Assembly: GCA_965205945.1 (NCBI GenBank)
Contig: CBDBIB010000001.1
Coordinates: forward strand, 576,001-640,000
From: Bdellovibrionales bacterium
Lineage (GTDB): Bacteria > Bdellovibrionota > Bdellovibrionia > Bdellovibrionales > UBA1609
Length of the DNA: 64,000 bases
Direction of reading: 5' to 3'
Below the pieces are notes generated by a model. That model saw nothing but the letters and a program-made list of their open reading frames with translations. It did not search any database and had not been told where the DNA came from. The position numbers and the translations under genes were made by a program. Shown in pieces: positions 3,631-28,300 of the stretch; positions within the stretch are counted from its first letter, which is position 1; each line of letters starts with the position of its first letter.

Positions 3631-6600
3631 TTAAAATTTCCCAACTACGTTAAAAAACCACCCATAACTATTAAAACTAAAATTTATAAGATCATCATTA
3701 AACCTAGTAAAGTTAAAACCTGTTCCCACTTTTAAATTGCCACCAAGGTGATAATCTAAGCCTACTAAAAAACCTTTTTGCAGATCTTTTGACTCTTTAA
3801 CCTGAACAAGCCTGTATTCAAAAATACCATCCCATTTTTTAATAAAATGATATCTTAATCTAATCTGTTCGAATGTAAGAGTTGTATCAACCCACAAACC
3901 ACTGTTTCTATTCACTCTTTGAGAGCCGATTTTTTGAGCAAGCCTTGCTCCCAACTCCCAACGCCTATTTAAGTCATATGTTCCCTCAACCGATCCAATA
4001 TGAACCTTCTGACTACCGCGAGCATTTGCTTGTGCTTGTGAATCCAAATCATACAGATACGTATATCTAGCAAAAAAATTCCAACGGTCTCTAAAAATAG
4101 GTCTAAGTGCATAACCTAAGTTCCCCTCTATATACCTTGCTAAAGCCTGAGTTGTATCCGTTGGATCTTCAGACAAAGAATAGTCTGCCTCTAAAAACCA
4201 AGTACTAGACGGACTCACTTTAAATTTTAAAGAGTTCGTTAATAACAACTGATCCAAATTTGTAACACCTTTATTCTTAACCAAAGAAACCTTAGAAGAT
4301 GCTGTAATATCTGTGTCTTTTGTATAAACAAACCCTAAACTAACAGCATTTTTACTTGTAACATCTCCTGTTAAATCGCTTTTAAGATCTCCCATTTGAT
4401 ATGAAAATGTCATCGATAACATTCTATTTAAGTTATAATCTAAACCATATAATTGGTTAATTCCAACACTGTCTCCTGTTTCTTGAAACTGATTTTCCGT
4501 AGTCATTCTTATTCCATTTTTAAAACTCTTACTCTGCCCAAGAGTAATCCCATTAGTAACAGGGCCACTTAAACTATCTACAGATTTATCTAAATTAGCA
4601 TATACCTTATGACCTTCTGTCACATTATAGCCAAGACCTGCCACTACAGCCTCTCCCCTATCTCCATTAGAATACTCTGTTGCTCCATCCCATTTACGAT
4701 TAATCTTAAACTTAGATCCTAATGCTGCACGATCATTTTTTCCGTAGCCACCCTTATACTTAGTAGTTGTTTGCCCTTTGACATAAACACTTAAACCAGG
4801 TTCTAATTTTTGACTATACTTTAGCCCAATTAAATGCCCTTCTTTTTTAGGCACAGATAAAGCTTCACTACTATCAATACGATACTCTAGACTGCTGCTA
4901 GCAGCACCCTCTTTAAACCTTCTACCATAAGAAATTATAAACGTATTTTTATCTACCCCATCTATCTCTTTTAAAAGGGCCATTTTAGATTTAATGATAT
5001 CTTTTTTATTAACATCAATCTCAAAATCATAACCATATTCTTTTAAATCATTTTGTGCTTGCCTTCTTGCAGTAGAAAACCCCTCTTCGTAGTCTCTATA
5101 CCATGTAGAAAAAACACCTTCTACTTTTGATTCCACAAAATCATTTAAAAAAAACTGTGACTCTACACCCCATGCTTTAGCTTTTGTAATAGGAGTTGCT
5201 GCCACAGGCTTTGCAATAAAACTCAACCCTCCATCTGTTGATTCAAAATTAGACCCTGACTGAATATCTTTTGTTTCTGAAGTTTCAGCCTTAACAAAGC
5301 TCTCTTTACCTAATCTTAATGTTGCATCTAAACCTGAAAGGTTATACTCAGATTTAATCCTACTTTCTTTCACATGTGTTCCACCTATGGAAACATAATC
5401 ACCAACCCACTGTTCAAGCCTCCCCCCATAAGTAAGAGTATTTAAGCTACCTCCTGTATCACTATATTCATAATCTGCAATTAAATAGTATTTATTATTT
5501 CCTATTCCATCAGGATCTATAACTTCATTAGAAGACTGCATCACAAACGTTGTTAAAGGTTGTGTAAGAACAACTCTTCCAGCCAAATAATCAAACTCGT
5601 AATGCTCATAAGGTTTTAATACAATCTGCTCTTTTAAACGCCCTGAATCTCTATACCTAACCTCAATAACTAGTTTCTCAGAGCCCTGTACAATATCATT
5701 ATGCTTTAATATATATAATCTACTACCTGTTCCTAAAAACTCATTGTGACCGAAAAGTGTTTCTGGTTCAGAAATAAAACCTGTAATTTTTGTTTTTTCT
5801 TCACCAAATTTTGTTTGAGATCTAGATTTGTGTTTTATATGTCCTCCATATAAAGTTCTATTGTATTGTGAAAATAAAGTGCTGGTTAAACCAGAATTTG
5901 CGTTACCCCACATAGCATGAGATTTATCCACTTCAATTTTTATATAAATTTTTCCTAATGTTGGAGTTGTTTGAATTGTTGTTGAATTATCACCGTATAC
6001 AGGGTAATATCTATCCGGATCTAATCTTCTAAACAAAGCCTCAGAATTTTTACGATGTAAGCCTTTAAAAATATCTCTAACATCCCCTTCTGTTGTATCT
6101 AATTTTGAAGTGAGCAAATACTTTCCTTTAACTTTTCCTTTTAAAAAATATGCTAATCTACCATCTAAAAAAACCTTTCCATCATATTCATCCGTGCTTA
6201 CGATTCCTGCAACTTTCTCACTTAAGCGATTTTCTCCAACCCTCATGTCGGCAAGTCCAATCATAAAAAAATATTTTCCAGAAACATCTACACTAAAAGG
6301 CACAGTAAAAACCTCATTGTTTGTCTTATCTTGAATGTCAATTTTGATTTTATGTTTCCCTATTGGAAAGTGTTCTTCAATAACAAATTTACCTTGCTCA
6401 TCTACTCGAACAGACTGACCTCGATAAGAAATGAAATGATCTTTTGGTATATTATTACCCACAAGTCTTACACGGCTACCTTTTATTACAATGTTTTGTT
6501 TTTCAACACTAGAATGACCCCAAATCTCAGCAATAGCATTGGACTCAATAAAACTATCTTTTTCATCTAAATTCTGATTTACAGATTTTTTAATAAAGGT

Positions 6601-7308
6601 GATTTTTTTAACTCTTACAATATCAAAAACTCTCTTTGACTCAAAAACTTTAAATTCATAATATAAAGAATCTCCAATATTATATTCTTTTTCATCAAAC
6701 TTATACTCTATATCATAAATAGAATTTGAATCTCCCTTTAAAGTTTTAATATCTATTTGAGAACTAAGTTTTCCTTTTTTAAATATCCTAAGTTCCCAAT
6801 TTTTAATAAAGGGTAAATAATTTGTATAAACTCTAAATTTAAGGCTGCCTGGTTTAAGCTCTACTTCTTTTTCAGTAGTGATCTCTAGCTGTGGAGATGT
6901 TATACCAGAATCTTCCGTCGCCCATATGGCAGCACCGTTTCTTAAACGAACTCTCCCTTCATAAAAAACATCAACTCTTCTTTGAAGTTGAAGTTCATTA
7001 TCTAGGTCTTTTCTCATTTTAACTGTTGTCACATCTTTAGAATCTAAAGCTCCATCTTTTTTTTCTTCCCCAGATGCAGGGCCTCTCAATTTTTCAGGTT
7101 CAGGGTAATCCTCTCCAAAACCTTGCGCTTCAAACATCCCCTTAGTTTCTTTCGGGTAACCCTTTGTAAACGCTGCTGGCACTCGACCTTTTGCATTATC
7201 TAACTCTAGATTCCCCGGAGTAACCTCTGCATTTGAAACTCCTACTGAGAGAAACAACAGGCAGAAGACAAAAACTTTTTTATCTACTTTCCTCTTTATT
7301 TTTCCCAT
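3631..7308 (-). CDS. Large outer-membrane beta-barrel protein of the DUF11-protein-associated type, with periplasmic N-terminal domains
   Basis: Signal peptide (MGKIKRKVDKKVFVFCLLFLSVGVSNA|E), long amphipathic beta-strand region and C-terminal BAM-type signal YGWFFNVVGKF. Motifs IWATED, GRLAYFLKGKVKGKYLLT and LDPDRYYPVYGD are ones I recognise from uncharacterised barrels beside DUF11 genes. ATG 7308 (GGAG 6 nt upstream) preferred over the track's GTG 7320; overlaps the upstream stop. Confidence 0.8.
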   Translation of the reverse strand: MGKIKRKVDKKVFVFCLLFLSVGVSNAEVTPGNLELDNAKGRVPAAFTKGYPKETKGMFEAQGFGEDYPEPEKLRGPASGEEKKDGALDSKDVTTVKMRKDLDNELQLQRRVDVFYEGRVRLRNGAAIWATEDSGITSPQLEITTEKEVELKPGSLKFRVYTNYLPFIKNWELRIFKKGKLSSQIDIKTLKGDSNSIYDIEYKFDEKEYNIGDSLYYEFKVFESKRVFDIVRVKKITFIKKSVNQNLDEKDSFIESNAIAEIWGHSSVEKQNIVIKGSRVRLVGNNIPKDHFISYRGQSVRVDEQGKFVIEEHFPIGKHKIKIDIQDKTNNEVFTVPFSVDVSGKYFFMIGLADMRVGENRLSEKVAGIVSTDEYDGKVFLDGRLAYFLKGKVKGKYLLTSKLDTTEGDVRDIFKGLHRKNSEALFRRLDPDRYYPVYGDNSTTIQTTPTLGKIYIKIEVDKSHAMWGNANSGLTSTLFSQYNRTLYGGHIKHKSRSQTKFGEEKTKITGFISEPETLFGHNEFLGTGSRLYILKHNDIVQGSEKLVIEVRYRDSGRLKEQIVLKPYEHYEFDYLAGRVVLTQPLTTFVMQSSNEVIDPDGIGNNKYYLIADYEYSDTGGSLNTLTYGGRLEQWVGDYVSIGGTHVKESRIKSEYNLSGLDATLRLGKESFVKAETSETKDIQSGSNFESTDGGLSFIAKPVAATPITKAKAWGVESQFFLNDFVESKVEGVFSTWYRDYEEGFSTARRQAQNDLKEYGYDFEIDVNKKDIIKSKMALLKEIDGVDKNTFIISYGRRFKEGAASSSLEYRIDSSEALSVPKKEGHLIGLKYSQKLEPGLSVYVKGQTTTKYKGGYGKNDRAALGSKFKINRKWDGATEYSNGDRGEAVVAGLGYNVTEGHKVYANLDKSVDSLSGPVTNGITLGQSKSFKNGIRMTTENQFQETGDSVGINQLYGLDYNLNRMLSMTFSYQMGDLKSDLTGDVTSKNAVSLGFVYTKDTDITASSKVSLVKNKGVTNLDQLLLTNSLKFKVSPSSTWFLEADYSLSEDPTDTTQALARYIEGNLGYALRPIFRDRWNFFARYTYLYDLDSQAQANARGSQKVHIGSVEGTYDLNRRWELGARLAQKIGSQRVNRNSGLWVDTTLTFEQIRLRYHFIKKWDGIFEYRLVQVKESKDLQKGFLVGLDYHLGGNLKVGTGFNFTRFNDDLINFSFNSYGWFFNVVGKF

Positions 7309-10300
7309 CATATTCTCCACTTAACGTTCTAGTTATATTCTTTACCTTATATTTAAACTTCTTAAGTTTCTTTAAATTATAATAACTATTTTGCTCCATA
7401 GTAAAACTATCAATTGGATCAAAAAATTTAATATCTTCTTGAAGATCTCCAATAAATTTAACTGGAATCACAACCCTTGCAGTTTCACCAGCTCTTAACT
7501 TTTTAAGTTTCCAAACCCCGTTACTATAGTCTCCTTGAGAAGCCTTAGCAGCAGATGTAAAAATTAAATACTTTTTATCAATATAATCTTTAATTTCAAT
7601 ATTTGAAGCAATCTGTTTTCCTACATTTTGAATTTTAATAATGTAATTAAATAACTCTCCTTCATAAATATCTTTTCTTGATACTGATTTTTTCACCCTT
7701 ACTTTAGCAGTATTATTAACTTTTATTGCACTTTTTTGTACATCTAACGTTAACTCACTATCAACTTGATTCATTGAAAAATCTGTATAACCTGCAAGCT
7801 TTACTGGAGTAGTGAAATTATTTAATTCAAAAGTCCAAATCATATCTACGACCTGCTTCGGAAAAATTTCTTTAATGAACCAAATCCCTCTAGCACTATA
7901 ATCTGTATCTGTTGCAATATCTCTATTTATAGATTTTAATGAATTTTGATCAAATAAAGGTTTAATTTTAATATTTGTTGCCACAGCAGGGCCATTGTTT
8001 CTTATTGTATATTTATATGTGACGTATGGAACATTAATTTTCTTCTTTAAGGCTTTAATTTCAATATTAATATCTGATTTATTCTCAATCACATACTCTT
8101 TGCTATAAATATCAATTTGTTTATTCAAATCATCTTTATCAATCTTATGTCTTTTTATTCTAATAAAAGCTTTTGTATTAGAAGTTTTAAATTTTACTTT
8201 TACCCTAATCTTTAAAGTTTCAATATCTTTATATTTAATATCTTTAACTGTCCACGTTAAATCCTCTACATTACCTTTTGTAAGGTTTGTTTTAATCAAC
8301 TCTAAGGAAGGACTGATTTCAAAATCTAATTCTGATTTATTAACAAACGCTGGACCTAAATTAGATTGCGAAATAATAAACTCAACCTCCTCTCCTTCCT
8401 CTAACGTATCCTTAGATTCAGATATTACTACAGCATAATCAACTTCTTTATTTATTTTCACAGAAACAGTAGTCGTATTACCTTTATCAGAAATCTCGGT
8501 TTGCTTCATATCTATAATACCAAAAGCATTAATCAATTCATCCTTATTGCAATTGTATTTAGGCTTCACTCTTAACGTCATCGTTAACGATTCTTTAAAA
8601 CCCAATTTATCTACACTTAGAGTTTTCTTCCTAACATCACCAACAGTTGAACGAGATGAAACCAATATCAAGCACCTATGTAAAGGAGGATTTAATTTAA
8701 GATTTTTTACCATTGCAGGGCCCTGGTTGCTCACAAAATAACTTAACTCAAACTCTTCACCTAAGTTAACATTTTTAACATTAGAAGAGATTTTTGTTAA
8801 AAGATCAGTTTTGTTATTAATCCTAAGCTTAGGTGATAATGAATCTTTAGAGATGATTACAAAATCCTCTCTCATTTTAATTTCATCAATTTTATCCTCA
8901 ATAACAAAACCTCCAGATCCTGGAGTTATTTCTGATAGCCATGTAAGCTCAGCTTTTTCATGAACCTTAAGAGTTGGAATTAACCATGAATTACTAATAA
9001 GATTAGTATTTTTAGACACAGATACATATTTATGTTTAACTAAATGACTGTGAATAATATCTTTGATTCTAATATTGTTTGCCATAGCTGGGCCCATGTT
9101 TTTAATTCTAGTACTTGTTAAGATTTTATCTCCTTCATCAGCTCTAGATTTACTAAATTCTTTTACCAATATGATATTTGTCTGACTAGCTACTCTAATC
9201 TTAACTGTATCAATAGAATTTTTTAATAAATCTTTTTGCTCATGAGTAAATTTTTCTACTGGATCTAGAATCGTTGAGCCACCAGTTCCTTCTAATATTT
9301 TTACAGATACCTTCATTTTAGCAGATTCACCTTTTAACAATTCTAAAATAGTCCATTTTGCACCAGAAGCACTTCCTTTACTTACCTTAAGATCCCCTAA
9401 TTTAATAAGTGATGAATCAATAATATCTTCAAGCACCAGATCTTGCGCTACAGCTGGACCTTTATTTATAATCCTCCAAGTTATAAACACCTCATCGCCT
9501 TCTTCAGGATAAGTATCAGAAACTGTTTTTGTTAGAATAATATCAGTATTATTTAGAATTTGTATTTCATCTTCAAAAATATCTTTTGTTAACTCTAAAT
9601 CAATTTGATCTAAAGAAACATCATAAACCATTCCTTTTAAAATGGAAGATCCTGATCTAGGTTTAGGTGTCAATACAAATACAATCTCCTCTGAGTTTCC
9701 ATAATCAATAAAGTTAATGCTCCATATATTGTCCTTAAAACTTCCTTTTGTAGCTTTTGTTGATAGCAGCTTAAACTCTTCATCAAATGATATGGCCACC
9801 CCTACATTAGTAGCCTTAATTGGTCCTTTATTATAAGCCTTTACTAAAAATCTAATTTGATCACCTTCATTAGCTGCTTTAACATTAAATGATGATGCAA
9901 TTACAAGATCTAAATTGTTCCTAACCTGAATAGACAACGTTTCAATATCTTTTGTTTTATCTATATCTACCTGTTCTGCATATACAGTTGCTACTCCTAC
10001 TACCATTTCTTTAGTAGCAGATCCCACCTTACTGTTAGCATTAATTTTTGCCACCGCTTTTTCACCACTCATCAATGTTCCAATAATCCATTGATCTTTA
10101 GTAACTACACCATGTGATACAGATATATTTTGTATGTTAATAGATTTATCTTGAATAAGATCTACCACTAATTTAGTCGCTGCAGCAGGACCATTATTAA
10201 CCCCAGTAATCACATAGTTAAAGTTTTCACGCTCATCTACTTCAGTATGACTTAAATTTGTAGTAATATTAAAATCTAACTCATTCTTAATTCTACCAAT

Positions 10301-13300
10301 GGCAGCAATATCTTTAACACCTATTTGAGCCTGTAAACCTTCATAAATATAATGAGCTACTGGCAGCATAAATTCTTCATTACTTGTTAATACTTTAACT
10401 TTAGCGCTGAATTCTAATTTTGCTCCAGACTTCCCCTCTAAATTTTTGATGAACCACCTATTTCCGTTATAGTTACCTAAACTTGATTTAATTCTACCAT
10501 GCAATTTAAATTGCTCCGGTAATGGAAGATTAATCTCTAAATTAGATACACTAGATAACCCTTTATTTTTAACCTGTGCTACGAATTTGACAATATCTTG
10601 TTCATGAGGGGCTGTGTTATCTACGTCCACTAAAAATTTTAAATCAGCAGTAACATCTTGTATTTTATTCATGATAGTTTTAGCCCTATTCATTGACAAT
10701 ATTTTATTTTTTTCAGCCAAACCCCTAAAATCAGCAAAGCCTTGAACAAAAACCTTTCCGTCATTTAAGTCTAGTGGTAAATTACTTAATTCTTTTGTTA
10801 GTTTTTCAACCTTATTAACTTCAGATTCTCTAATATTTGATTTAGCAACGTTAAAAAGAATACTTTCTGAAATCTTTTTTGACTGAAAGACCTTACCTTC
10901 TGATAAAATTGGGATTTTCACTCCAAAATTAAACTTTGTAAATAATCCGCCTGTTAATTTTATAACTCTTGGATTTTCAGTAGTAAATGTTGAATTCTTA
11001 GGTAACGTTTTAGGATCTACTTTTAATATATAGTTATGACCTCTATTATGCTTAAACTCAATATCTGGAATATGGAATCTACCAAATCCATCTGTTTCAT
11101 GAGCTAATCCATTAACTCCATATATTCTCACCCCTGGAATTCCTTCTTCATCAACACCCATATTGTTAATTGTCACTAGTAAGAATTTTTCTTTTTCCTC
11201 TTCAATGATAGTGTGCGACACTAAAATATCTTGAGAGCTCATTCCTTTACGACGAAGTCCTGTTAACTCCTCTATAACCCTACCATCACTCTTAAAAAGA
11301 AGAGCTGTTCCTTCGGATGTAACAACCCCTAAATCTTTTTTAATAGACTCTTTTATTGGAATCTTTAATTTAACATATGTAGTTTTAGAATAATCATTTC
11401 TCGATGACCTTCCACTTAAGGCTCCTAATCTATAACCTTTTTTAACATCTCCACTAATTTTCTTAAATCCATTTCCTCTATCTATCATAGAATCTGTATC
11501 TCTTACGTTCTCAAGACTTGTTCCACCATAAACCTTTAAACCCCTAACTATAGATTCATCTTGATAACCATCACCATCTCTATCATGAAACACTTTACCT
11601 ATAATACTAGTAATATCAAAAATTACGCTCTTTTGGATTACAATCAAAGCTCGGACTTCAGAAGTAACTTTAAAATTTTCAAATTCAGCAAATGCCCCTA
11701 TAGATACTCCATTTCCAACAATGGAAGAACCAACTCTAGTTTGAAAAATAATTTTATATTTTTCTAAACCCGTTGTAGACATTAAAAAACTTAACTCTTT
11801 TCCATCAACTGCAAGCTTTTCACTTGTACTTAAGCTCTTAACTGTTTCTATATCTAAATCTAAAAAGACATCATCTTCTGTCTCAAAAATACCATCATCT
11901 CCAGCCCTTAATACTTTCGTAGTCCCCTTAATATATGATAAACCCTGTGGTAAATTAGCTACTACTTTTAATGGCTCAAAAACATCTGTCACTAAACTTT
12001 CTACTTCTAATTCAACACCTAGTAGGTCACCCATAGAAGCCACATCTTTATCTGTCTTAATCCTAATTATTACCGAACTATTACCTAATATATTTAACTC
12101 AGCTATTAAATCATCTGGAGTAGTATTGCTATCTAACTTATCAGATTCTATTCTAGAAATTTTATTTATAATCTTTGTATTTTGAGCATCTTCATTAGGA
12201 CGAACCTCTAAGTTTAACGTAGCCTTCTCACCAACTAATAGCGAGCCTACGGACCAGACTGGCTCTAAAAAACTTCCCTTTGAAGCCGTAGAACTAATTA
12301 ATATAAATCTATCATCTAAATCATCATCAATTTCTAAACCATTTACTGCTAAAGGTCCTTTATTCTCAACTGTAATGGTAAATATAGCTGTTGCACTCTC
12401 ACCATATACAACTCCTGTATTAATATTTTTTGTTACATAAATATCAGATTCATTTCTAATATCTATCTGCTCAGATAAATCATCCGGTGAAAGATTTATA
12501 TCTGTTTGATCTAAAGTTATATCTGAAATAGTATTGATTACCGTTTGACCTGATGTTCCTGAGTTTACCCTAGCAACAATACTTAATTCAACAACATCAC
12601 CTGCATCAAGCTGTGGAATTACCCAATCTGGATAAGAAAAAGTGTTTCCAGAAAAAGCCGTGGCTGATACAAACGTAAGTTGTGCTGGCAATATATCTTT
12701 CATGAAAATGTTTGTCGCTCTTGCAGGGCCGTTATTTTCTACTATAATAGTAAATATAATCTCCTCATCTTCATTTGGCCTAGCATTATTTACTGTTTTA
12801 AAAATAACTAAATCTAAATCACTATTAACAGTTACATCTGCTGATAAAGTATCACCAACTGTGCTATCTATCTGATCTAAAGTGTAAGAAATTGTATTTG
12901 ATATTATTTGCCCTGATGTTCCCTTCAAAGCCCTTGCTTTAATATTTAAAGCAACAGTCTCTCCTGAGGCTAAATCCCCAATATTCCACGTCCTAGTACT
13001 AACTATAAAATTTAAAGAGTCGGCACTAATAAGCTCTAGCTGTGAAGGCCAATCATCTATAATTTTAAAATTCGAAGCTTGATTTGGTCCATTATTTCTA
13101 ACTACAATTGTATACGTAAACTCTTCACCTTCATCGATTATAGTTTTATCAACTGACAAGTTAATATCTAGATCAAGATCATTTTCAACAGTAATTGACT
13201 CCTCTAAGTCATCCCCTGCAGGGTTTAAATCTATCTGATCCAAGTCTACAGTTAAAATTTGATTTACAATAGTATTCCCAGATTGACCAATATCTATAGA

Positions 13301-16300
13301 AACTATTAATGTTAAAGTTTCTGTTTGAGCATTTTCAAGCGTACCTACAGACCAAAGATTTGCAGTATAAATTCCCTGACTTGCCGTAGAGCTTAATAAA
13401 GTTAGACCTGCAGGAATCACGTCTTCTATTGTAACGTTTGTTGCCCTTGCAGGACCGTTATTATAAACTGTAATTGTATAACTAATTAAAGACTGTTCGT
13501 AAGGAGTTGGGTTGTCTACAATCTTAGTAACTATAAGATCAGTCCCATTATCAATATTCACAGATTCTTCAAGATCATCCGTATCAGTTGAATCAAACTG
13601 ATCCATTGTGTAATTACTAATTATATTTGTAATTCTCGTGTTTGTAGTTCCCGCATCCACAGTTGCTGAGATTTCTAGATTTGCTATTTCTCCAATATTA
13701 AGTCGTGGAATTATCCATTGTGGTTTTACAAATGTTCCATGACTTGGTATAGAGGCTGATGAAAATGTTAATCCTGTGGGCAAAGTATCATCAATAACAA
13801 GATTATCAATTGCAATCGGTCCATTATTTGTTGCTTGAATTGTAAATTCAATCAAATCTCCTTCAAATGAATTTGAATCATCTACAGTTTTTGTAATCAT
13901 TAAATCCACCTGCTTATCTACAACAATTACTTCTTCTAAATCATCGCCTAAAGGATCTATATCTGTTCCACTTTGCAAAACATTTGTAATAATATTAGTA
14001 ATTATTTGTCCATTTGTTTCCTTATCCACTGTTGCAAGAATTTGAATAGAAGCTGTTTCACCCATTGAAAGGTTTCCAACAATCCACTTGTTTACTAAGT
14101 AGCTACCGTGCGTTGCTGCAGCTGAAGAAGCAAATGTCAAACCTGCTGGCATAGCATCTATGATTTCAAGATTTCGTGCTTGCGCAGGACCTTGGTTTTC
14201 AACTGTTAATGTGAATGTAACAACCTCCCCTTCACGTGGAGTGTTATTGTCTACTATTTTAGTTAAGATTAAATTATTATTATTATTAATAAACACATCA
14301 GTAGTATCTATATCATTACTTGTTTCAAGTTCTTCTTGGTCTACCAATAATACTTGAGCTTGAGTAGTTGCCGTTTGCCCACCAGATCCTTCTAGGGCTT
14401 TAGCTGTAATTTCTAACGTAAAAAATTCATTTCTATCTATAGTTGGTATAGACCAGATCCTAGTATTACTATCAAAAGATCCGCCTGTTATATTATAAGA
14501 TTCAAAGTTAAACAAAACAGGAAGAGCGATTAAGACGCCTACATTTGTTCCTCTTGCTGGTCCTATATTTGAAACCACAACAGTAAATGTTACATCATCC
14601 TGCTCATTAAGAAAAACCTGATCTGAAATAATAGATACCACTAAATCAAGTTCATTAACAATTTGAATTGTTTCATCTAAATCATCATTTGAATGATTTA
14701 AATCAGTTTCATCTAAAGTTATATTGCTTACTGTATTTGTAATAAATTGACCTTTGGTACCCACATTAGCTGTGGCATCAATTGTTAAAGTTTTACTCTC
14801 ATCCACAGCAATATCGCCAAGAGTCCACACTCCATTACTTATACTGTAGGCCGTTCCATCTGATTCGTTATGAGCCAAATATGTTAGCCCTGCAGGAATT
14901 TGATCTTGAACACTAACATTCTCAGCTAGTGCAGGACCATTGTTTGTAACATTAATAGTGAATCTAACCATTTCACCTTCTGAATAAATAGACTCATCTG
15001 TAATTTTTGTGATAAAAAGATCTGTCTCATGTTTAACTAAAATATCTGCAAATAAAATATCATTAGAAGCGCCAATAGAATCATTCTGATCAAAAGTGAC
15101 TGATGAAATCTCATTTCTAATGACACTCCCACCTTGACCATAATCAACTTCAGTTTCAATCTCTAAAGTACTAATAAATCCATTTGGTATTACCCTTATT
15201 GACCAAACATCATCTTGAAAACTTCCTAAGTTAGCCCGGGCACTGATAAATGTAACCCCTGCTGGTAAAATATCTGTTAAGCTAAAATTAGTTGCTCCTG
15301 AAGGACCATTGTTTCTAACCGTAATGGTGTATGTAATCAGCTCACCTTCATTTGGAGTTCGATTTGAAACGGTTTTAGAAATTTCAAGGTTAGTATTATT
15401 ACCGACACTTAAAACCTCTGATAAATCATCTGGCGTAATATTACTATCTGTTTGATCAAAACTATTTAATTGAACAGTATTTATAATATCAATACCACCA
15501 GCCTCTAATTCAACACGGGATCGAAGATTTAATACAGCAGTATCATTAACAGGCAAAGAGCTAATATCCCAAAGCATTGTGTTCGAATCAAATATTCCTT
15601 TAGTTGAAAAATAAGACTCTAAACTAAGTAATGTTGAAGGAAATATATCTTGAATTTGAATTCCTGTTGCATTTGCTGGGCCTTTATTCTCTACTCGCAC
15701 AGTAAATGTAACTTCATCACCCTCTTGTGGTGCTTGAACATCTACAGTTTTAGTAATATGTAAATCTACTTTATCATCAACAGTGAAAACTTCTGTTAAA
15801 TCATCCGGGGTTTTATTAGAATCAAACTGATCCAGTGTAAAACCTATTACTTGAGCCGTTATAACTTGATTAAATATTCCAGTTTTTACTTTAGATTGAA
15901 TTTTTAATGTTGCACTACTTCCTGAATTAACGGCAGGAATACTCCAGGTTGGAAAAAAGTACGTACCTGCAGATGCAACGACTCCATTATTTATAAAATC
16001 CACTTGAGGTGGCGCAAAAAAGTCCATCGATAAATTCTCAGCCCTATTTGGACCATTATTTACAACCTCAATCTGATATGTGAAAACTTGATTCTCTTCT
16101 AATATTTCATCAGCACCAGGATCATCTATAATAGTAACTAATATCTGTAAATCTGTATTTGTACCAACAACTACCGTTTCCTCTAAATCGTCTGCCTCAA
16201 TATTTAAATCTATTTGATCTTGGCTCTGATTATCAAGTCTATTAACAATAACTTGCCCTGAAGCGCCTGGGTTAACATCAACAGTTAATATTAATGTTTC

Positions 16301-19300
16301 TACTTGCCCCATATTTAATGTGCCTATGGACCATTTAGATCCAGCATAAGCACCCTGTGTTGGAACCTGAGAATTTAATGTAAAGAACGTTGATAAAATG
16401 TCATAAATTTCAACGTTTTTAGCTTGTGCTGGACCATTATTTGTGACCTGAATTGTAAAGACAACTTGATCTCCCTCATCAACAGCATTTAAATTAGCTG
16501 TTTTACTAAAGAAAATATCAGCCTCATTTTTAATAATTAGACTTAATTCATTATTATCTACAACTTGTGTATCTTCCGTTTGATCTATTGCTGTAATATC
16601 TAAAACTGTTGAAAGTGTGCTTCCCCCAGATCCAACATCTACACTAACCTGAAAACTTATAGTTTCTGTCACACCCACTGCAAGAGTGTTTATATCCCAA
16701 GTTAAAGTCGCCCCTATATTATTAACATTATCTGCCCCAACCATAGTCCCAGGAATAAACGTTAACCCCTCAGGAACTATTGTCTGAAGAGTCATATTGG
16801 TTGCAACCTTTGGACCGTTATTTGTTACATTATAAGTAAGCGTAACAAAATCACCTTCCTCAGGGTTTGAGTTCACAACTATACCATCAATATAAACATC
16901 TATTTTCTCAATAACTCTTATATCTTCAGTATAATCATCACTTGTTAGATTTGTATCTATTACATCTAAGATAAAATTTGTAACCGTATTAGTAATTATG
17001 CTCCCACCAGTACCTGGAAGTGGGCTAGCAGAAATTTCAAGTGAAATTGATGCCCCCACTGGTAAAAATGATGTGACACCCCAATTTCCTGTCACAGAAT
17101 CATATGTACCTAAGGAGTTATCCGATATATATGTAAGTCCAGCAGGAAGTAAATCATTAAGTTGAATACTCTCAACTGTGACGGGTCCATTATTTGTAAC
17201 TGTTATAATATATTTAAAAATTTCCCCAATACTTGGAGTCGAATTGTCTACTACTTTAGAAATTTGAACATCTGATCTACTCTCTAGATTAACCGTAACA
17301 CTTAATGTATCATTACTCTGAGTATCTAAATACGAGTGGGTATAACTTACGGTATTTGTAATAGATAAGTTTTTAGCCCCTAAACCTGAAATTACTTTAA
17401 ATGTAAGAGTTTTAGTAGCTCCTATTGCAATTTCATTTATTATCCACACAAGACCTGTTCCTGCAGGATCTAATTCATTTCGATCATCAGCACCCGTCAT
17501 AGAACCCAAAACATAATCCATAAAATCAGGCACAATATCTGTTATTTGAATATTTTCACCAACTGATGGCCCAAAGTTTTCAACAGTAATTGTATACGTC
17601 ATTTCTGATAATAAAGCTGGCTGTAGACTACTTGCAGTCTTTATAACCTGAAGATCTATAACATTTTGAACTGTAACTGCTTCAGATAAATCGTCAGGCG
17701 TTGTATTTGTGTCAACCTGATCTAGTGCAACTCTGGTTAATGTATTTACAATAACATCACCTGCAGTCTTTGCATTCACTATAACTTGAAAAATTAATGT
17801 TTCAGTTTGCAATGGACCTAGCTGTATAATAGTCCAATTAAGACCTGCTTGAGCAGGATCTGCATCAAGACGTGTAGAGCCTCCGTTAATTGAACCCGTT
17901 ACATATGTTAAACCTGGTGGTATAATATCTGTAATAGTAATATTTGAAGCTCTTGTTTTTAAACTCTTATTACTAACATTAATCGTATAAGTAAGCGTTT
18001 CTAATTCTAAAGGATTGTTCTTATCCACTTGCTTTTCAATAAAAAGATCTAATGTATTATCTACAGTCACATCTATTCTTGACGTGTTGTTAGCAAAATC
18101 TACTTCCGTACTTATAAATGATGTAATATTTGAAACAGTTGATATAACTTCTCCTGCAAAGCCAGAATCCACTGTTACCTCATAAGTTAAAATACTCACC
18201 TCACCGCTTAGAATTTGATGGACCGTCCACTCAAGTCCCGAAGCTGTAGATGGAGTAAGATCATTCTGTATGTGACCTCCACTAATTGAATTTTCTACAT
18301 AAGTTAATCCTGTCGGAACTAAATTACTAACCACAACATCTCTAGATGTAGTTGGCCCATTATTTCTAAGAGTTAATGTATATGTTAGTGTATCTGTTTC
18401 TGACGGTGTTGTTGATGTTACAGCTTGAATAATTTCAAGGTCAGCATCATTTCTAACGTCAATACTAACTAAAGAAGTGTCATTACTATTATCTATATCT
18501 AACTGAGCAGAAGAGAGTAAATTACCAGTATTAACAATTGCCCTTCCTGAAGTTCCTTCCTTAGGAGCTGCTCGAAATATCAAATCAAGGTTCTCGCCTT
18601 TTAACAACTGATTGATTGTCCACTTTAACCCATCTCCAGAGCCAGGAGTCCTGTCATCTTGATGATCTCCTCCCACCATTGAACCTGCAATATACGATAA
18701 GTTAGAGTCTAGTAAATCAACAACTTTAATATCTGATGCCGCTGCGGGTCCGTTGTTCTTAACATTAACAGTATAAACTACCTCCTCTAGCTCAAAAGGA
18801 AGAATATTACTTACTGTTTTTGTAATTTGAATATCAAGATCTGAATTTACATTTAAATCAACATTTCCTGAATTATTTAAATCATTTATATCTGTTTGAG
18901 CAGAGCTAGATAATTGCGCCGTATTTGTAATAGGATTGTGTAAATTAGAAGACTCTAACACCATCACATCAAATGTAATGTTTTTAGTTTGACCTGAACT
19001 AATTTTACCAATAGAAAAATCAACTCCTGTACCTGATGGATCAGTACTATTTACTGAATCTACGCCACTATCTGTTCTAGGCATATAGAATAATCCTGTA
19101 GGAATAATATCATTGATCACAACTGAACTTGCCTGTGTTGGACCTGCATTTGTAACACCAATTGTATATGTAACTATCTCACCTATATTAGGCGTTGTAT
19201 TAGAAACTGCTTTAGTTAATGAAATATCTAAGTTATTTAGGATATTAATATCTCTTGTACCCACATTGTTTACAGGATTTATCTCTGTTTGATCAACACT

Positions 19301-22300
19301 TGTGTATGAAGCACTATTTGTAATAAGAGTATTTAAATTCGCTCCGGCACCAACCACACCTTTAAATGTTAAATCTACTGAATTTAAAGGACCTACTGAA
19401 GTTAACGAATTGATTGTCCACTTTAAGCCTGTTCCATAAGGGGAGCTTTCAATCTGAGCATCCCCTCCAAGCATAGAGGCCGTAGTATATATAATATCTA
19501 AAGGAACAATATCTTTAATTACTAAACCAGTAGCACGTGATGGTCCATGATTTGTAACAGTAATTGTATATGTAACCTCTTCACCTTCTTCATAATTTGA
19601 CTTATTCGAAGTCTTTGCTACTTGAATATCTAAATCTGTTGTAACAGTCACAGTGACTGAGTCTGTGTTATTTGTTAAATTCTCTTCTGTTTGATCAATG
19701 GAGAAAATATCACTCGTATTTGTAATACTCATTCCGCCTGCACCTGAGTCAATTTGAGCATTAAAAGTAACTGTTTTACTTTCACCACTAAGTAGTGAAT
19801 TAATTGTCCACCTCAACCCTGCACCCGTTGGATCAGATTCATTTTTTAAATCTCCACCTATCATCGTACCTACTTGATAAGTTAAACCTGGTGGTAAAAT
19901 ATCTCTTACAACAATATTTGTTGCATCTGCAGGACCAGAATTTGTAACAACCAATGAATACGTAATGACTTGAGTCTCATTCGGCATACTTTCATTAACT
20001 TGTTTATTTATTACAATATCTACACCACGTGCTAAGAAATCAGCAGTATCACTATCATTGTCTAAATTAGAATCGGTTTGATCTAAAGAAGTTATTGTAC
20101 CGGTATTTATAACAGACCCTAATCCCCTAGCACCCACATCTACCGTAGCTTGAAATGTTAAGCTTGCTATATTTTCTGGACCTACACCTGATAAAGATTC
20201 AATTAACCAAGTTAAGCCTGTTGTATCTGGATTTATATCATTATACAATGCTTGACCTGCAATTGAACCTGGTACATACGTCACTCCATCTGGAACTATA
20301 TCCGTAATATTAATATTTGTTGCCGTAGCACCACTAAAATTTTTAACTAAAAGAGTATACGTAACAATTTGACCTTCAATGGGTTCTGTATTAGATATTT
20401 GTTTTTCTATTTCAATATCTAAAGCCTGAACAATTATATCTACTGCTCCTACATTATTACCTAAATTATCTTCTGATTGATCCGCCGAAGAAAACTCTGC
20501 GCTATTTGTAATTGTTCCATATTCATTATAAGCACCCGCATTTACTTGTGCATTAAACATTACATCTACAATTTGATTTGGAGCCAATGTATTGATTGTC
20601 CACGTTAAGCCGGTTATATCATCTGGAGTCAGATCATTTTGTATATCTCCTCCTGCTATTGTTCCTTGCCTATAAGTAATACCTGCCGGCACTAAATCTT
20701 TTAACACAACATTTGTTGCTGGCTGACTGCTTAAGTTCTTTACAGAAATTGTATAGGTAACTGTTTCAAATTCGACAGGTGTTGGGTTGTTGACAACTTT
20801 AAGAACTTCTAAATCAAGTCCTCGTACAGTGATATCTACTAAGCCTTCATTATTTACCTGATTTGAATCAACCTGATTAAGATTAATCAATCTTGCAGTA
20901 TTTGTGATAGTCCCACCGGAATTAACTTTTGCACCTATATCAACCCTAGCTTTAAAACGAAGACTTACACTATCTCCCCCAGCAAGAGTATTGATATGCC
21001 AAACAAGACCATCTCCTAAGGTAGGAGTAGTATCATCTTGTAAACTTCCACCACGCATCGAAAAGTCCACATAAGTTATACCCTCTGGAACAATATCACC
21101 AATAACTATACCTGTTCCCACCTCATCATCTATTTTATTTGTAACGGTAATTATATATTCAATCTCTTCACCCTCTTCAGGACTAAAGTTACTCACTGTT
21201 TTTAAAACACTTAAATCAAATGCTTTAATTGTAATAAGAGCTGAACTAATATTATTAGACACATTGTCTTCTGATTGATCCGCCGAAGAAAATTCTGCAC
21301 TATTTATAATTGCTCCGTATGTTGCTTGTGAGCCAGCATCTACCTGAGCTCTAAATGTTACTGATTTTGTTTCTCCGGCTAAAAGGCTTGCATGAGTCCA
21401 AGTCAGCCCATCTCCAGAAGTTGGAGTTGAATCATTTCTTGATGTTCCTCCTCTAATTGAATTTTGTACATATGTTACACCTGCTGGCACCAAATCTTTT
21501 AACACAACATTTGTTGCTTCTTGCTGGCTTAGGTTTGCAACACTAATCTTATAAATTACCTCACTTCTTTCAAGAGGATTGGCATTATCTACAGTTTTTA
21601 TAACTTCTAAATCAAGGCCACTAACCGTAATCATAGCCCCGTCTGTGTTATTTGTATTGTCCTCTTCTGATTGATCTGATAACTTTAAATTAACTGTATT
21701 AGTAATTGTTCCATAATCATCTTTTGCTCGAGGATCCACTGTCGCCTGAAAACTCAGAGTCTCTACAGCACCCACACTTAATGTGGGAAAAACCCATACT
21801 AAACCTGTTGTATCATGGTTCTCATCATTTCTCTGTGTTCCACCCTTAATTGAATTCAACACATATGTTACACCATCAGGAACTATATCCTCTACCACTA
21901 TATTTGTAGCGGTTTGTCCACTTAAATTACTCACTATAATTGTATACGTAATCTTAGCCCCTTCTTCTGGACTTTGATTATCAACAGTTTTTACTATGCT
22001 TAAATCTATTCCTCTAACAGTAATATCTACTGATCCTTGATCATTTTCTGGAGTAGAATCTGCTTGATCAACATTGGTCATCTGTGCTGTATTTGTAATT
22101 ATTCCATAATTATCTTTTGCTCTAGCGTTCACAACTGCATCAAAAGTTAGAATAATATCTGTTTCACTTGCAATGGAGTTAATATTCCAAGTTAAACCTC
22201 CTGTGATTGTATAAGGATCTAAATCATTTCTTTCTGTTCCTCCTCTAATTGAACCTTGCACATATGTTACACCTTCTGGAACAACATCCGTAATTTCTAA

Positions 22301-25300
22301 ACCTGTTCCTATCGTGTCAATAGCATTATTTGTAACTGTAATCGTGTATGTTATAACTTCGCCCTCTTCAGGGTTACTTTCACTAACTGTTTTAACAATT
22401 CCAATATCAAAAATTCTTGCTTCTATATTAGCAGCATCAATATTATTTAACGGATTTTCTTCAGTCTCGTTAAAACTTAATACTTTTGCAGTGTTTGTAA
22501 TTACTCCTAAAGCATGAGCTCCAGCATTTACTCTTGACCTAAAAGTTAATGTACTTGTTACTCCAGCTCCTATAGATCCAATAGTCCAAGTTAAACCCCC
22601 TGTAACTGTACCAGGATCTAAATCATTTCTTTCTGTTCCTCCTCTAATTGAATCTTGAACATATGTTACACCTGCTGGAACAACATCCCCTATGACTACA
22701 TCTGTTGCAACTTGTGTACTTAAGTTTTCTACCGTAATTGTGTATGTGATTTCTTCACCCTCTGCTGGTGTCGCATTACTTACAGTTTTAATTAATTCTA
22801 AATCTATTCCTTTTATTGTAATAACAACTGAATCTCTATCATTAGCCGCTTGATCATCTGTTTGATCCAAAGACGTAATCTCACTCGTATTTGTGATGTC
22901 TCCTTCAGATGCTTTAGCACCTGGATCTACCTTAACTCTAAAAGTTAGCTCCGTAGTAACTCCACCTGCTATTGTATCAATTGTCCATGTAAGCCCTGAA
23001 CCTAAAACATTCTGGTTGTCGCCTCCAAAAATAGAACCTTGAACATATGTTAAACCTGCTGGAACTAGATTCGTTACCTCTACCCCTGTAGCATCTTGTG
23101 TACTTAAATTTCTTACTCTTAATGTATATGTAATCTCTTCACCTTCTGTCGGTGTCGTATTGTTTACACTTGTTTCTATACTTAAATCTAATCCTACTAC
23201 CGCAACCGTCACTTCTCCTGTATCATTTAACGAATCTGAATCTATTTGATCCGAACTTATTCTAGATGCACTATTAATTATTTCTCTATAAAATGCTTGA
23301 GCACCTAAATCCACCGTTGCTTGAAATGTTAAATCTATATCCGAATTTGGTGCTAAACTTGAAATCCTCCACTCTAACCCTGCTGTAACAGGATCTGACT
23401 CATCTACTAATGCTACACCTCCAATGGAACCTTGAACATATGTTAAACCTGCTGGAACTACATCTTTAATTACTATATTTGTTCCAACTGCCACACTAGA
23501 TCTGTTGTCAACATTTATTGTATACGTAAATGTTTCACCTTCTTGAACACTTGTTTTACTTGATCTTTTTGTAACCGCTACATCAAATTCTTGAGCTGTA
23601 ATATTTCGACTTCCATTATTATTTAACGGATTTTCTTCAGTCTCGTTAAAACTTAATACTTTTGCAGTGTTTGTAATTACTCCTAAAGCATGAGCTCCAG
23701 CATTTACTCTTGACCTAAAAGTTAATGTACTTGTTACTCCAGCTCCTATAGATCCAATAGTCCAAGTTAAACCCCCCGTAACTGTACCAGGATCTAAATC
23801 ATTTCTTTCTGTTCCTCCTCTAATTGAATCTTGAACATATGTTACACCTGCTGGAACAACATCCCCTATGACTACATCTGTTGCAACTTGTGTACTTAAG
23901 TTTTCTACCGTAATTGTGTATGTGATTTCTTCACCTTCTGCTGGTGTCGCATTACTTACAGTTTTAATTAATTCTAAATCTATTCCTTTTATTGTAATAA
24001 CAACTGAATCTCTATCATTAGCCGCTTGATCATCTGTTTGATCCAAAGACGTAATCTCACTCGTATTTGTGATGTCTCCTTCAGATGCTTTAGCACCTGG
24101 ATCTACCTTAACTCTAAAAGTTAGCTCCGTAGTAACTCCACCTGCTATTGTATCAATTGTCCATGTAAGCCCTGAACCTAAAACATTCTGGTTGTCGCCT
24201 CCAAAAATAGAACCTTGAACATATGTTAAACCTGCTGGAACTAGATTCGTTACCTCTACCCCTGTAGCATCTTGTGTACTTAAATTTCTTACTCTTAATG
24301 TATATGTAATCTCTTCACCTTCTGTCGGTGTCGTATTGTTTACACTTGTTTCTATACTTAAATCTAATCCTACTACCGCAACCGTCACTTCTCCTGTATC
24401 ATTTAACGAATCTGAATCTATTTGATCCGAACTTATTCTAGATGCACTATTAATTATTTCTCTATAAAATGCTTGAGCACCTAAATCCACCGTTGCTTGA
24501 AATGTTAAATCTATATCCGAATTTGGTGCTAAACTTGAAATCCTCCACTCTAACCCTGCTGTAACAGGATCTGACTCATCTACTAATGCTACACCTCCAA
24601 TGGAACCTTGAACATATGTTAAACCTGCTGGAACTACATCTTTAATTACTATATTTGTTCCAACTGCCACACTAGATCTGTTGTCAACATTTATTGTATA
24701 CGTAAATGTTTCACCTTCTTGAACACTTGTTTTACTTGATCTTTTTGTAACCGCTACATCAAATTCTTGAGCTGTAATATTTCGACTTCCATTATTATTT
24801 AACGGATTTTCTTCAGTCTCGTTAAAACTTAATACTTTTGCAGTGTTTGTAATTACTCCTAAAGCATGAGCTCCAGCATTTACTCTTGACCTAAAAGTTA
24901 ATGTACTTGTTACTCCAGCTCCTATAGATCCAATAGTCCAAGTTAAACCCCCTGTAACTGTACCAGGATCTAAATCATTTCTTTCTGTTCCTCCTCTAAT
25001 TGAATCTTGAACATATGTTACACCTGCTGGAACAACATCCCCTATGACTACATCTGTTGCAACTTGTGTACTTAAGTTTTCTACCGTAATTGTGTATGTG
25101 ATTTCTTCACCCTCTGCTGGTGTCGCATTACTTACAGTTTTAATTAATTCTAAATCTATTCCTTTTATTGTAATAACAACTGAATCTCTATCATTAGCCG
25201 CTTGATCATCTGTTTGATCCAAAGACGTAATCTCACTCGTATTTGTGATGTCTCCTTCAGATGCTTTAGCACCTGGATCTACCTTAACTCTAAAAGTTAG

Positions 25301-28300
25301 CTCCGTAGTAACTCCACCTGCTATTGTATCAATTGTCCATGTAAGCCCTGAACCTAAAACATTCTGGTTGTCGCCTCCAAAAATAGAACCTTGAACATAT
25401 GTTAAACCTGCTGGAACTAGATTCGTTACCTCTACCCCTGTAGCATCTTGTGTACTTAAATTTCTTACTCTTAATGTATATGTAATCTCTTCACCTTCTG
25501 TCGGTGTCGTATTGTTTACACTTGTTTCTATACTTAAATCTAATCCTACTACCGCAACCGTCACTTCTCCTGTATCATTTAACGAATCTGAATCTATTTG
25601 ATCCGAACTTATTCTAGATGCACTATTAATTATTTCTCTATAAAATGCTTGAGCACCTAAATCCACCGTTGCTTGAAATGTTAAATCTATATCCGAATTT
25701 GGTGCTAAACTTGAAATCCTCCACTCTAACCCTGCTGTAACAGGATCTGACTCATCTACTAATGCTACACCTCCAATGGAACCTTGAACATATGTTAAAC
25801 CTGCTGGAACTACATCTTTAATTACTATATTTGTTCCAACTGCCACACTAGATCTGTTGTCAACATTTATTGTATACGTAAATGTTTCACCTTCTTGAAC
25901 ACTTGTTTTACTTGATCTTTTTGTAACCGCTACATCAAATTCTTGAGCTGTAATATTTCGACTTCCATTATTATTTAACGGATTTTCTTCAGTCTCGTTA
26001 AAACTTAATACTTTTGCAGTGTTTGTAATTACTCCTAAAGCATGAGCTCCAGCATTTACTCTTGACCTAAAAGTTAATGTACTTGTTACTCCAGCTCCTA
26101 TAGATCCAATAGTCCAAGTTAAACCCCCTGTAACTGTACCAGGATCTAAATCATTTCTTTCTGTTCCTCCTCTAATTGAATCTTGAACATATGTTACACC
26201 TGCTGGAACAACATCCCCTATGACTACATCTGTTGCAACTTGTGTACTTAAGTTTTCTACCGTAATTGTGTATGTGATTTCTTCACCCTCTGCTGGTGTC
26301 GCATTACTTACAGTTTTAATTAATTCTAAATCTATTCCTTTTATTGTAATAACAACTGAATCTCTATCATTAGCCGCTTGATCATCTGTTTGATCCAAAG
26401 ACGTAATCTCACTCGTATTTGTGATGTCTCCTTCAGATGCTTTAGCACCTGGATCTACCTTAACTCTAAAAGTTAGCTCCGTAGTAACTCCACCTGCTAT
26501 TGTATCAATTGTCCATGTAAGCCCTGAACCTAAAACATTCTGGTTGTCGCCTCCAAAAATAGAACCTTGAACATATGTTAAACCTGCTGGAACTAGATTC
26601 GTTACCTCTACCCCTGTAGCATCTTGTGTACTTAAACTTCTTACTCTTAATGTATATGTAATCTCTTCACCTTCTGTCGGTGTCGTATTGTTTACACTTG
26701 TTTCTATACTTAAATCTAATCCTGCAATCGTTAATATCTGTTCAACACTATTATTTGCGATAACAGAATCGATTTGATCTAATGACTGAATCATTGCAAC
26801 ATTTGTGATTGTTTCGGATATAGCCCTAGCCCCTATATCAACAGTAGCTCGAAAAATTAAATTTGTACTGCTTGCATTTGGAAGAGAGTTTATTGTCCAA
26901 TTTAAACCTGTTAAAGGTGTTAAATCATTATTGCTGTCACCACCTTCAATTGAATCTGGTACATAAGTTAGGCCTACAGGAACTATATTGTTTACAATAA
27001 TATTAGTTCCTTCTACAAGCGCATTATTGTTCGTAAGTGTTAAAGTTACTACTACCTCTTCTCCCTCTTCTAGGGTGCTTTCAGACACCTCCTGTGAAAT
27101 GCCTATATCAAAAGTAATTGGAGTTATAGAAGCCACTGAAGTATCGTTTGTAGTATTTGTATCATTTTCCATTAAAGAAATAATACTTGCTCTGTTTTCA
27201 ATGTTTCTTAAGCTCGCAGCTCCAGCATCCACAGTTACATCAAATGTAATGATGGCTTGATTAAAAGGCGCTTCACTAACAGGCCTTAATTGCGGAATAG
27301 TAAATTCTAACCCCGTGGCTGGAGAAGACTCATCTACAGTAGTTCCTGCAATACTTGATTCCCATGAGTCTGCCACATATGTTACACCATCTGGTACGAT
27401 ATCCCTTACTAAAATAGTATTTAATGTATTTTCTTGTGCGTTGTTTACCGTAAGAGTATAAGAGGCTGTTCCACCTTCTATGACAATCATTGGATTAACT
27501 GTTTTCGTAATACTTGCATCAAAATTAACAATAGTAATTGTAGTATCTGAGGCGTTGTTAGAAAGGTTTTCATCTACTGGATTACTTGCCTGTAAATGCC
27601 CTTCTATCCTTCTAGTTCCATAATTTAAAGCAGCCCCTGGATTCACTATAACTTTATAAGTCATCGTTATAACTTCACCCACCTCAATAGTACCTATGGA
27701 GAATATAATTCCATTATTACCTGGATCAGTATCATCCGGAGTAACACCCTCACCTAAAGCACTAGATGGAACATAGTTTAGCCCAATTGGAACGACAGAT
27801 ATTATTTCAGCACTTGTTAGTTCTTGAGCGCTAACATTTTCTACACTAATTGTAAGTGTAACCGTATCACCTTCATTTACTACTGTTGTGCTTGGTTGAA
27901 TCTGAACCTTTAAATCAGCAGCAGCTACAATAATATCGACTGAATCTGTATTATTAGATACATTACTCTCAGCCTGATCCACAGCTGTTATTGTTGCTGA
28001 ATTTGGAATTGTTGCAATTACATTTGGTATTGCTGAAAAAGTTAATGTTATTACTTGATTAGAATTTATAGTTCCTAATGTCCAAATGATTCCTGTCCCT
28101 GGGTTACTATCATTTACTAAAACCCCTCCCTTTGCAGAAGATGAAACATACGTTAACCTCGGATCTAAAATATCTGTTAATTCAACCCCTGTAGCAGAAT
28201 TTGTACCTAAATTTGAAACTGTAATAGTGTAATCAACTTGCTGACCTAATCCCGGTGCTACTGTATTTGCTGTTTTTAAAACCTTTAAATCAATACCTTG

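Follow-up and report, generated by a model that had tools for sequence, protein, structure and literature searches.

A peptidoglycan-binding OmpA-like domain apparently divided between a giant DUF11 protein and its outer-membrane barrel partner in a Bdellovibrionales bacterium

To our knowledge, how giant fibrillar adhesins are retained at the outer membrane of Gram-negative bacteria is largely unknown beyond the type V and LapA systems. A locus in a Bdellovibrionales bacterium (assembly GCA_965205945.1, contig CBDBIB010000001.1, positions 576,001 to 640,000, a stretch of 64,000 nucleotides which we refer to as the window) raises the question of what an anchoring domain might be doing when it appears to be divided between two proteins. 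On the minus strand of the window, a gene encoding a giant DUF11 protein (the giant) is followed by a co-directional gene encoding a protein with a very large predicted outer-membrane β-barrel (the barrel protein); the giant holds the beginning of an OmpA-like domain (the N-part) and the barrel protein holds the motifs with which such domains end (the C-part). Our reading, which we consider fairly probable, is that the two genes encode a single OmpA-like peptidoglycan-binding domain in two chains which assembles in trans.

The giant is laid out as a Sec-type signal peptide, ~50 DUF11 (CLIPPER) repeats (31 + 11 + 10 stretches across the three pieces of the protein which were scanned), one SdrD-B-like region and the N-part (see Table 1 for coordinates). 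The N-part consists of β1-α1-β2-α2 alone and matches positions 1–65 of the 98 in the Pfam OmpA family (PF00691), as had been suggested in a preliminary description of this locus in which the giant was said to carry only the first part of the domain; the position given there (about 10870–10660) was a fair approximation, with ILFNV beginning at 10861 and NRAKTI finishing at 10673. This match scored 23.3 bits when the last 1,706 residues of the giant were searched and 29.0 bits as an 87-residue fragment (the Pfam gathering score is 27.2 bits), and no single chain in the window fitted the whole PF00691 model at or above the gathering score. The NCBIfam models for YfiB, YiaD, OmpA, Pal and TssL all fell on the same ~75 residues, far under their cut-offs. 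The Asp (codon 10730–10732) and Arg (codon 10685–10687) of the N-part, which from the Acinetobacter baumannii OmpA and Pal literature we take to be the peptidoglycan-contacting residues of OmpA-like domains, are both retained as first described; in the window these sites read GFAD and MNRA, and in an alignment of 45 N-parts R80 (the Arg of RRA) never varies and D65 (the Asp of GH.D) reaches at least 90% conservation. The last 1,706 residues of the giant include ten DUF11 stretches, one before the N-part and, in agreement with the preliminary count, nine after it, and the N-part lies 1,122 residues ahead of the giant's stop codon. Judged by eye, the last DUF11 repeat of the giant seems to be whole.

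The motifs missing from the giant are found just past the signal peptide of the barrel protein, where FEAQGFGEDYP (7134–7102) and QRRVDVF (6984–6964) were located exactly as previously reported, and the C-part as a whole runs from the signal peptide through MFEAQGFGEDYP and a charged insert to QRRVDVFY. Three residues, G69, R114 and R115, are at least 90% conserved among 48 barrel-protein homologues. In gammaproteobacterial barrel proteins the signal peptide is followed by CxxxC and then by '..lfrvrtRGE..P....LQPDRRVtV'; this CxxxC pair, just ahead of the first C-part strand, is conserved in the Gammaproteobacteria and is not seen in the window's genus. The insert between the two strands also varies, swelling to well over 200 low-complexity residues in some relatives from the same clade (P0020–P0022).

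Do these two pieces make up one domain? Both were compared with a reference profile built from the 17 complete OmpA domains of fused relatives in which a single open reading frame (ORF) holds both parts. In hhalign comparisons the N-part alignment occupied columns 3–77 of this profile (probability 98.3%, E 2e-14) and the C-part slice columns 82–110 (probability 75%, E 2.5e-5), whereas two other slices of the barrel protein included as controls had probabilities of 0.2% and 0.1%; the N-part and C-part span the canonical profile without overlap. When a 53-position profile derived from 40 C-parts was run over the full set of PDB sequences, it gave 48 matches at E ≤ 10 of which 46 were OmpA-like chains (OmpA family, TssL, MotB/PomB/MotY, OprF, Pal, YfiB, YiaD and Rv0899; best E 2.7e-6), and in each case these were matched over their C-terminal ~30 residues; the two remaining matches were to a photosystem chain and a designed miniprotein. 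As far as profile comparisons can tell, the barrel-side piece is, at the level of the family, the rest of the OmpA domain. No second N-part or C-part was found anywhere in the 64,000-nucleotide window.

A complex was modelled from 107 residues of the giant's N-part (45-row alignment) and residues 32–124 of the barrel protein (48-row alignment). The three runs scored 0.65, 0.64 and 0.65 against 0.00 for the best of three controls (116 of 157 solved complexes reach the benchmark for this score, as do 2 of 215 mismatched pairs, counts which are rough here as we used our own alignments), and they agreed in at least 94% of contacts with a predicted local distance difference test (pLDDT) value of at least 57 for the partner. 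In the model VDVFY (116–120) pairs with β2 (chain 1 residues 58–63), V116 contacts β1 (I22) and the Arg and Ala of α2 (80, 81), and FEA (63–65) lies on the opposite face of β2. The modelled sheet order is β1-β4-β2-β3, which is the order of the sheet in OmpA-like domains, and the inter-chain β-sheet anticipated in the preliminary description does form in this model. It should be noted that such a model shows likeness to an OmpA-like domain and not binding or affinity.

The N-part might instead be a self-sufficient, short wall-binding module with its own tail strand, with GFGE and RRVDV belonging to an N-terminal domain of the barrel protein. Two observations fit such a module: the N-part of a fused relative (L015) folds confidently in the absence of the C-part in an AlphaFold2 model, with pLDDT values >90 and a third strand at residues 90–95, and the Pfam match extends to positions 75–84 of 98 in seven of the tails of giants from split loci. 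The profiles, however, place the canonical β3 and β4 in the C-part and not in the tail, and with β4 between β1 and β2 in the complex model the N-part alone would have a split sheet. Foldseek furthermore aligned the N-part model with the C-terminal domains of Pal and OmpA (5n2c, 2hqs_C and 3td5; E down to 5.5e-5) over only ~86 columns of domains which are 107–122 residues long, and we regard a self-sufficient module as unlikely.

Is the division peculiar to the window? A search for barrel-protein homologues gave 548 at E ≤ 0.001 among 7,999 candidates scored, and a scan of species genomes gave 590 relatives, of which the best 80 loci were kept and sorted using two hidden Markov models (HMMs), one for the barrel module and one for the truncated OmpA part. 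In 42 of these 80 loci a separate upstream ORF stops 1–30 residues past the N-part (five of the 42 have a weak N-part), and one further locus resembles the window (L001, from a Bdellovibrionales metagenome-assembled genome (MAG), with the N-part 1,109 residues ahead of the stop). The N-part, C-part and barrel are found in one ORF at 25 loci, which are natural single-chain forms, two loci have a complete OmpA domain within the barrel protein, and no N-part was found at the remaining ten, three of which are cut by the end of a contig (L056, L060 and L072, which have long spurious ORFs in high-GC DNA, were not counted as fused, going by the N-part HMM). When the tails of 37 split giants were searched, the Pfam OmpA match ran from position 1–2 to 64–84 of 98 in 33 of them, never reached 98, and ended ~10–35 residues ahead of the stop; the four exceptions were L001, in which the N-part is internal, and L048, L052 and L080, in which it is degenerate. 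The barrel gene of split relatives opens with a signal peptide and the C-part, and overlaps or abuts the upstream gene. Judged from these loci, the split is family-wide and not a local accident.

Some relatives show further variations on this arrangement. In fused forms (L015:52-594, L018:9473-10153, L025:7761-8384, L032, L037, L051, L053, L066, L067 and L004) the linker between the two parts is still signal-peptide-like, having a basic residue, then a hydrophobic stretch in which one Asp is common, AxA, acidic residues and CxxxC; these linkers align with the true signal peptides of split relatives (MKMKLLDY..), some with an in-frame Met just before, and internal initiation or cleavage there is possible from the look of these sequences. 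At three loci (L007:4568-5587, L075:9047-10066 and L023:2489-3508) a complete OmpA domain (Pfam positions 1/2–98 of 98) is nested in a split-type N-part between β2 and α2, with the signal-peptide-like linker and C-part coming after it. The giants of Kangiella and the Lysobacteraceae (e.g. L005:2-3064 and L017:1-2808) have a second, weaker N-part-like unit (27–58 bits) directly before the terminal one and ending 105–117 residues ahead of the stop, giving two tandem truncated OmpA-like units.

We then compared the retention of the two parts at 50 unfused loci using the motif RRx[DSTEA][VI] in the C-part. Each of the 40 in which the N-part is canonical has this motif (a regular expression picked it up at 37, inspection by eye at L001 and L049, and L039 has the variant RQV) and it is found at none of the ten in which the N-part is degenerate or absent. 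The preliminary description had reasoned that the GxGE..P and RRV motifs should be conserved where the partner carries half a domain, and they are, with no discordant locus among the 50. The ten loci lacking both parts belong to three separate clades (one Cocleimonas, three Ralstonia and six Stenotrophomonas rows), and three joint-loss events is a small number.

A number of observations weigh against assembly in trans. The N-part of the window is divergent, with GFAD in place of GHTD and a score of 32 bits against 100+ for most relatives, it is internal, with ~1,100 residues of repeats trailing from its C-terminal side, and the N-part has an additional tail strand. The C-part of the window taken alone is only a motif, as the 87-residue piece matched no Pfam family even at E ≤ 10. 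The preliminary description had proposed as a check that the joined halves should score better than the N-part alone, and this check came out against the idea: against our complete-OmpA profile the joined halves of the window scored 13.1 bits, compared with 15.0 bits for the N-part and 12.9 ± 0.4 bits for 30 shuffles, and only 12 of 44 pairs beat all of their shuffles. In the AlphaFold2 model of the fused form L015 (10-row alignment) the linker and C-part had pLDDT values of 35–50 and were undocked, and the success of the complex model may reflect the memory such models have of solved single-chain OmpA-like folds. Finally, the OmpA domain is not essential to the giant–barrel pair, since three clades have lost both parts and kept the giant and the barrel.

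Against this, the C-part is more than a chance resemblance, because G69, R114 and R115 are conserved by its relatives and the family profile matches the C-termini of solved OmpA structures. The clearest gains on joining were seen in the Granulosicoccaceae, in which the C-part alone scores 15–24 bits, and the 45-residue insert between the C-part strands probably costs the window its gain. The model of L015, with only ten aligned rows, is best taken as uninformative rather than supportive. The earlier proposal that the two halves fold together in trans therefore keeps the inter-chain sheet and the conservation of the motifs on its side, but not the score of the joined halves.

Some of the same evidence would suit a relic of gene fission, in which an ancestral single chain was cut within the OmpA domain and the remnants persist unassembled, with contact between giant and barrel, if there is any, made through other surfaces. 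Fused forms do exist, the window shows no gain on joining and has a weak N-part, and three clades do without either part. A relic would nevertheless be expected to decay independently on its two sides, yet the Asp and Arg (45 N-parts) and G69, R114 and R115 (48 C-parts) have stayed conserved in different phyla, retention and loss of the N-part and C-part go together as described above, and the split state is constant in clades of 37 and nine rows. This leads us to think of a fission relic as rather unlikely, and to prefer an assembly of the two chains into one domain.

The distribution of split and fused forms was examined in a FastTree phylogeny of 79 barrel modules (L026 and L074 were left out as their modules are <900 residues; the midpoint root is for drawing only and the direction of change is not given). 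The split and fused labels require at least 5–6 changes on this tree and the split clades (Bdellovibrionota with two rows, Thiotrichaceae/Granulosicoccaceae with nine, and Kangiella plus Lysobacteraceae with 37) are interleaved with fused ones, from which it follows that fission or fusion at one site has been repeated. We note that the barrel module of L060, from a record labelled as a Chitinophaga pinensis MAG, is placed deep within the Lysobacteraceae clade, and that this contig has probably been mis-binned.

A search of 41 related genomes located the barrel gene in all five that belong to the window's genus and in none of the 36 that represent other genera from the same family and order. 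Four congeners have the N-part 1,106–1,122 residues ahead of the giant's stop, and as this arrangement is kept at 54–88% barrel identity, the nine trailing DUF11 repeats are, on this comparison, a stable trait of the genus and not a recent disruption. Repeats following the N-part occur only in this genus among the loci examined, and elsewhere the giant stops 1–30 residues later. The alternative first offered for this locus, in which a DUF11 insertion together with a new signal peptide disrupted an ancestral fused gene, merges two events, because the Gammaproteobacteria share the break site although their N-part has no DUF11 repeats behind it: the break and the signal peptide stand as family-wide features, and the DUF11 insertion is separate and, among the loci examined, restricted to the genus. 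The order of events suggested by these loci is that the OmpA break and signal peptide, which are common to other phyla, are older than the insertion. The nearest relatives of the window-genus barrel in the tree are from other phyla, and there are hints that the barrel gene was acquired horizontally by this genus. One genome (G003; barrel locus L086, G003:C5:410646-413804) also has a stray 64-residue copy of the C-terminal end of the barrel protein with 83% identity, ~66 kb away.

Could the two parts be joined in cis in the window after all? The barrel gene is likely to start at ATG 7308 (or 7311) and not at GTG 7320, with a GGAG sequence ahead of it, and from ATG 7308 the gene overlaps the end of the giant (TAA 7282–7280) by 29 nucleotides. 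A +1 frameshift within the overlap would yield one fusion protein like those of the fused relatives, and it is the case that the barrel frame is the +1 frame of the giant, that the overlap is A-rich and that fused ORFs are common among relatives. Set against this, no recognisable shift site was seen in the overlap, the barrel gene has its own GGAG, ATG and full signal peptide, and a fusion in this genus would still hold 1,100 residues of repeats between the two parts, which makes frameshifting very improbable.

The comparisons above show the split, its conservation, the complementary homology of the two pieces and their joint loss. For an assembly in trans we envisage the following steps, in which association of the chains, binding to the wall and the route that the fibre takes past or through the barrel are all what we infer. 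Synthesis of the giant and barrel protein would be coupled by the 29-nucleotide overlap, and the two would be exported separately, each by its own signal peptide. The giant, as the fibre protein, would contribute β1-α1-β2-α2 with the conserved Asp and Arg of the wall site, and the mature N-terminus of the barrel protein would supply the last two strands. In the periplasm β4 (RRVDVFY) would insert between β1 and β2 of the giant, with β3 (MFEAQGFGE) taking up the other side of β2; neither piece would be expected to fold alone, because β4 sits between β1 and β2. The completed domain would tie together the fibre, the barrel protein and the peptidoglycan, and the rest of the fibre might reach the surface through or beside the very large barrel.

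If this is correct, a textbook wall-binding domain works as a clasp, made of two chains, that joins an adhesin to its own barrel protein, with a concrete interface (~60 residues from one partner and ~75 from the other) in a gene pair having 590 relatives in the species-genome scan. It would also explain the truncated look of adhesin 'OmpA-like anchors' in domain scans, and would provide a natural α/β domain reconstituted from separately exported chains, with possible use in protein-ligation tools. More tentatively, and with rather more doubt than conviction, we suggest that strand insertion by the barrel protein could be the checkpoint through which giant DUF11 adhesins are generally anchored and assembled, in an undescribed display pathway of hundreds of Gram-negative species, in which case the 'OmpA-like anchor' of the adhesin literature would be half a domain and the fused ORFs would be read or processed to the same two-piece state.

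Table 1. Coordinates of the giant gene, the barrel-protein gene and the putative halves of the OmpA-like domain within the 64,000-nucleotide window.
Feature	Position	Strand	Description
Giant gene	7280..29545	-	ORF, 7,421 residues; DUF11 giant, co-directional with the barrel-protein gene
Predicted signal peptide of the giant	29471..29545	-	..IGVFLLALSVSSGTALA / QS; cleavage site read by eye from the translation
OmpA-like N-part	10655..10873	-	β1 ILFNV, α1, β2 KVFVQGF, α2 LSMNRAKTIMNKI
Nine DUF11 repeats behind the N-part	7283..10654	-	Pfam
Barrel-protein gene	3631..7308	-	1,225 residues from ATG 7308; the ORF from GTG 7320 has 1,229 residues
GGAG ribosome-binding site of the barrel-protein gene	7315..7318	-	From the sequence; located within the 3′ end of the giant gene
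Signal peptide of the barrel protein	7228..7308	-	MGKIKRKVDKKVFVFCLLFLSVGVSNA / EV; cleavage site read by eye from the translation
C-part strand 1 and turn	7102..7137	-	MFEAQGFGEDYP; canonical β3, G.GE..P; hhalign canonical columns 82–92
Insert separating the C-part strands	6985..7101	-	Charged, low-complexity, ~39 residues; length variable among relatives
C-part strand 2	6961..6984	-	QRRVDVFY; canonical β4, NRRVEI
Remainder of the barrel protein	3634..6960	-	Three β-sandwich regions, then a very large predicted outer-membrane β-barrel of ~34 long strands

The barrel itself belongs to no family that we could assign. An AlphaFold2 model of residues 121–1229 of the barrel protein (45-row alignment) had a mean pLDDT of 75.8 and a predicted TM-score (pTM) of 0.67, and when compared with known structures using Foldseek and VIA it matched only large outer-membrane barrels (SprA of the type 9 system, LptD, Deinococcus SlpA and FimD/PapC). 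These matches are generic, having low TM-scores or high root-mean-square deviations (rmsd), and the top VIA match, FimD, is a poor fit (Z 16.2, rmsd 14.7 over 388 residues). Searches with the protein sequence gave only a weak match to Pfam BBP2_2 (E 0.015) and no NCBIfam family. On the plus strand of the window (1595–3195), a gene for a thioredoxin/AhpC-like protein and one for an SLT lytic transglycosylase run towards the end of the barrel gene, and the position of a wall-cutting enzyme beside a putatively wall-anchored machine may be a coincidence.

How does this arrangement compare with known systems? In the single-chain OmpA-like domains (OmpA_C, PF00691) of Pal, OmpA, OprF, MotB, TssL and YfiB, the profile spanned jointly by our two pieces is covered and the Asp and Arg are kept, but here the domain is spread over two polypeptides, each with a signal peptide, and is cut after α2. 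The Gram-negative DUF11/CLIPPER fibrillar adhesins, such as Acinetobacter silvestris B9T28_05395, are described in the available excerpts of two papers as ending in a C-terminal 'OmpA-like anchoring domain' (PMC10952558; bioRxiv 10.1101/2025.04.25.650565), and are of the same protein type as the giant, with an adhesive head on a DUF11 stalk and an OmpA-like match at the C-terminus; in those excerpts the domain is treated as an ordinary anchor, with neither truncation nor a partner gene named. In full-text literature searches outside subscription journals and closed supplements, neither a split OmpA-like domain nor the present barrel family was found described.

Two secretion systems were considered and rejected. 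A classical autotransporter (type Va) would have a C-terminal 12-strand barrel in cis, whereas here the predicted ~34-strand barrel is in a separate chain, and there is no PF03797 match in either protein; for two-partner secretion (type Vb), which relies on an Omp85-type TpsB bearing POTRA domains and on an N-terminal TPS domain in the cargo, there is no POTRA, ShlB or Haemagg_act match at E ≤ 1 to 10.

Closer parallels are found in systems which finish a domain with another chain or which tie an adhesin to the wall. In chaperone-usher pili, donor-strand complementation completes the incomplete β-sheet domain of one chain in the periplasm with a strand from another chain. The likeness, which is one of analogy, would lie in strand donation between chains with a large barrel protein involved; the differences are that the fold here is α/β and OmpA-like rather than that of an Ig-like pilin, that two strands would be given, and that the donor would be the barrel protein itself (there is no Usher Pfam match and no chaperone gene among the scanned neighbours). 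Inverse autotransporters (intimin and invasin, with a periplasmic LysM) and LapA-type retention modules also tie an adhesin to a barrel and to peptidoglycan, but these systems are made of a single chain or use a plug within a TolC-like pore, with a complete wall domain and barrels which are small against the ~34 strands predicted here.

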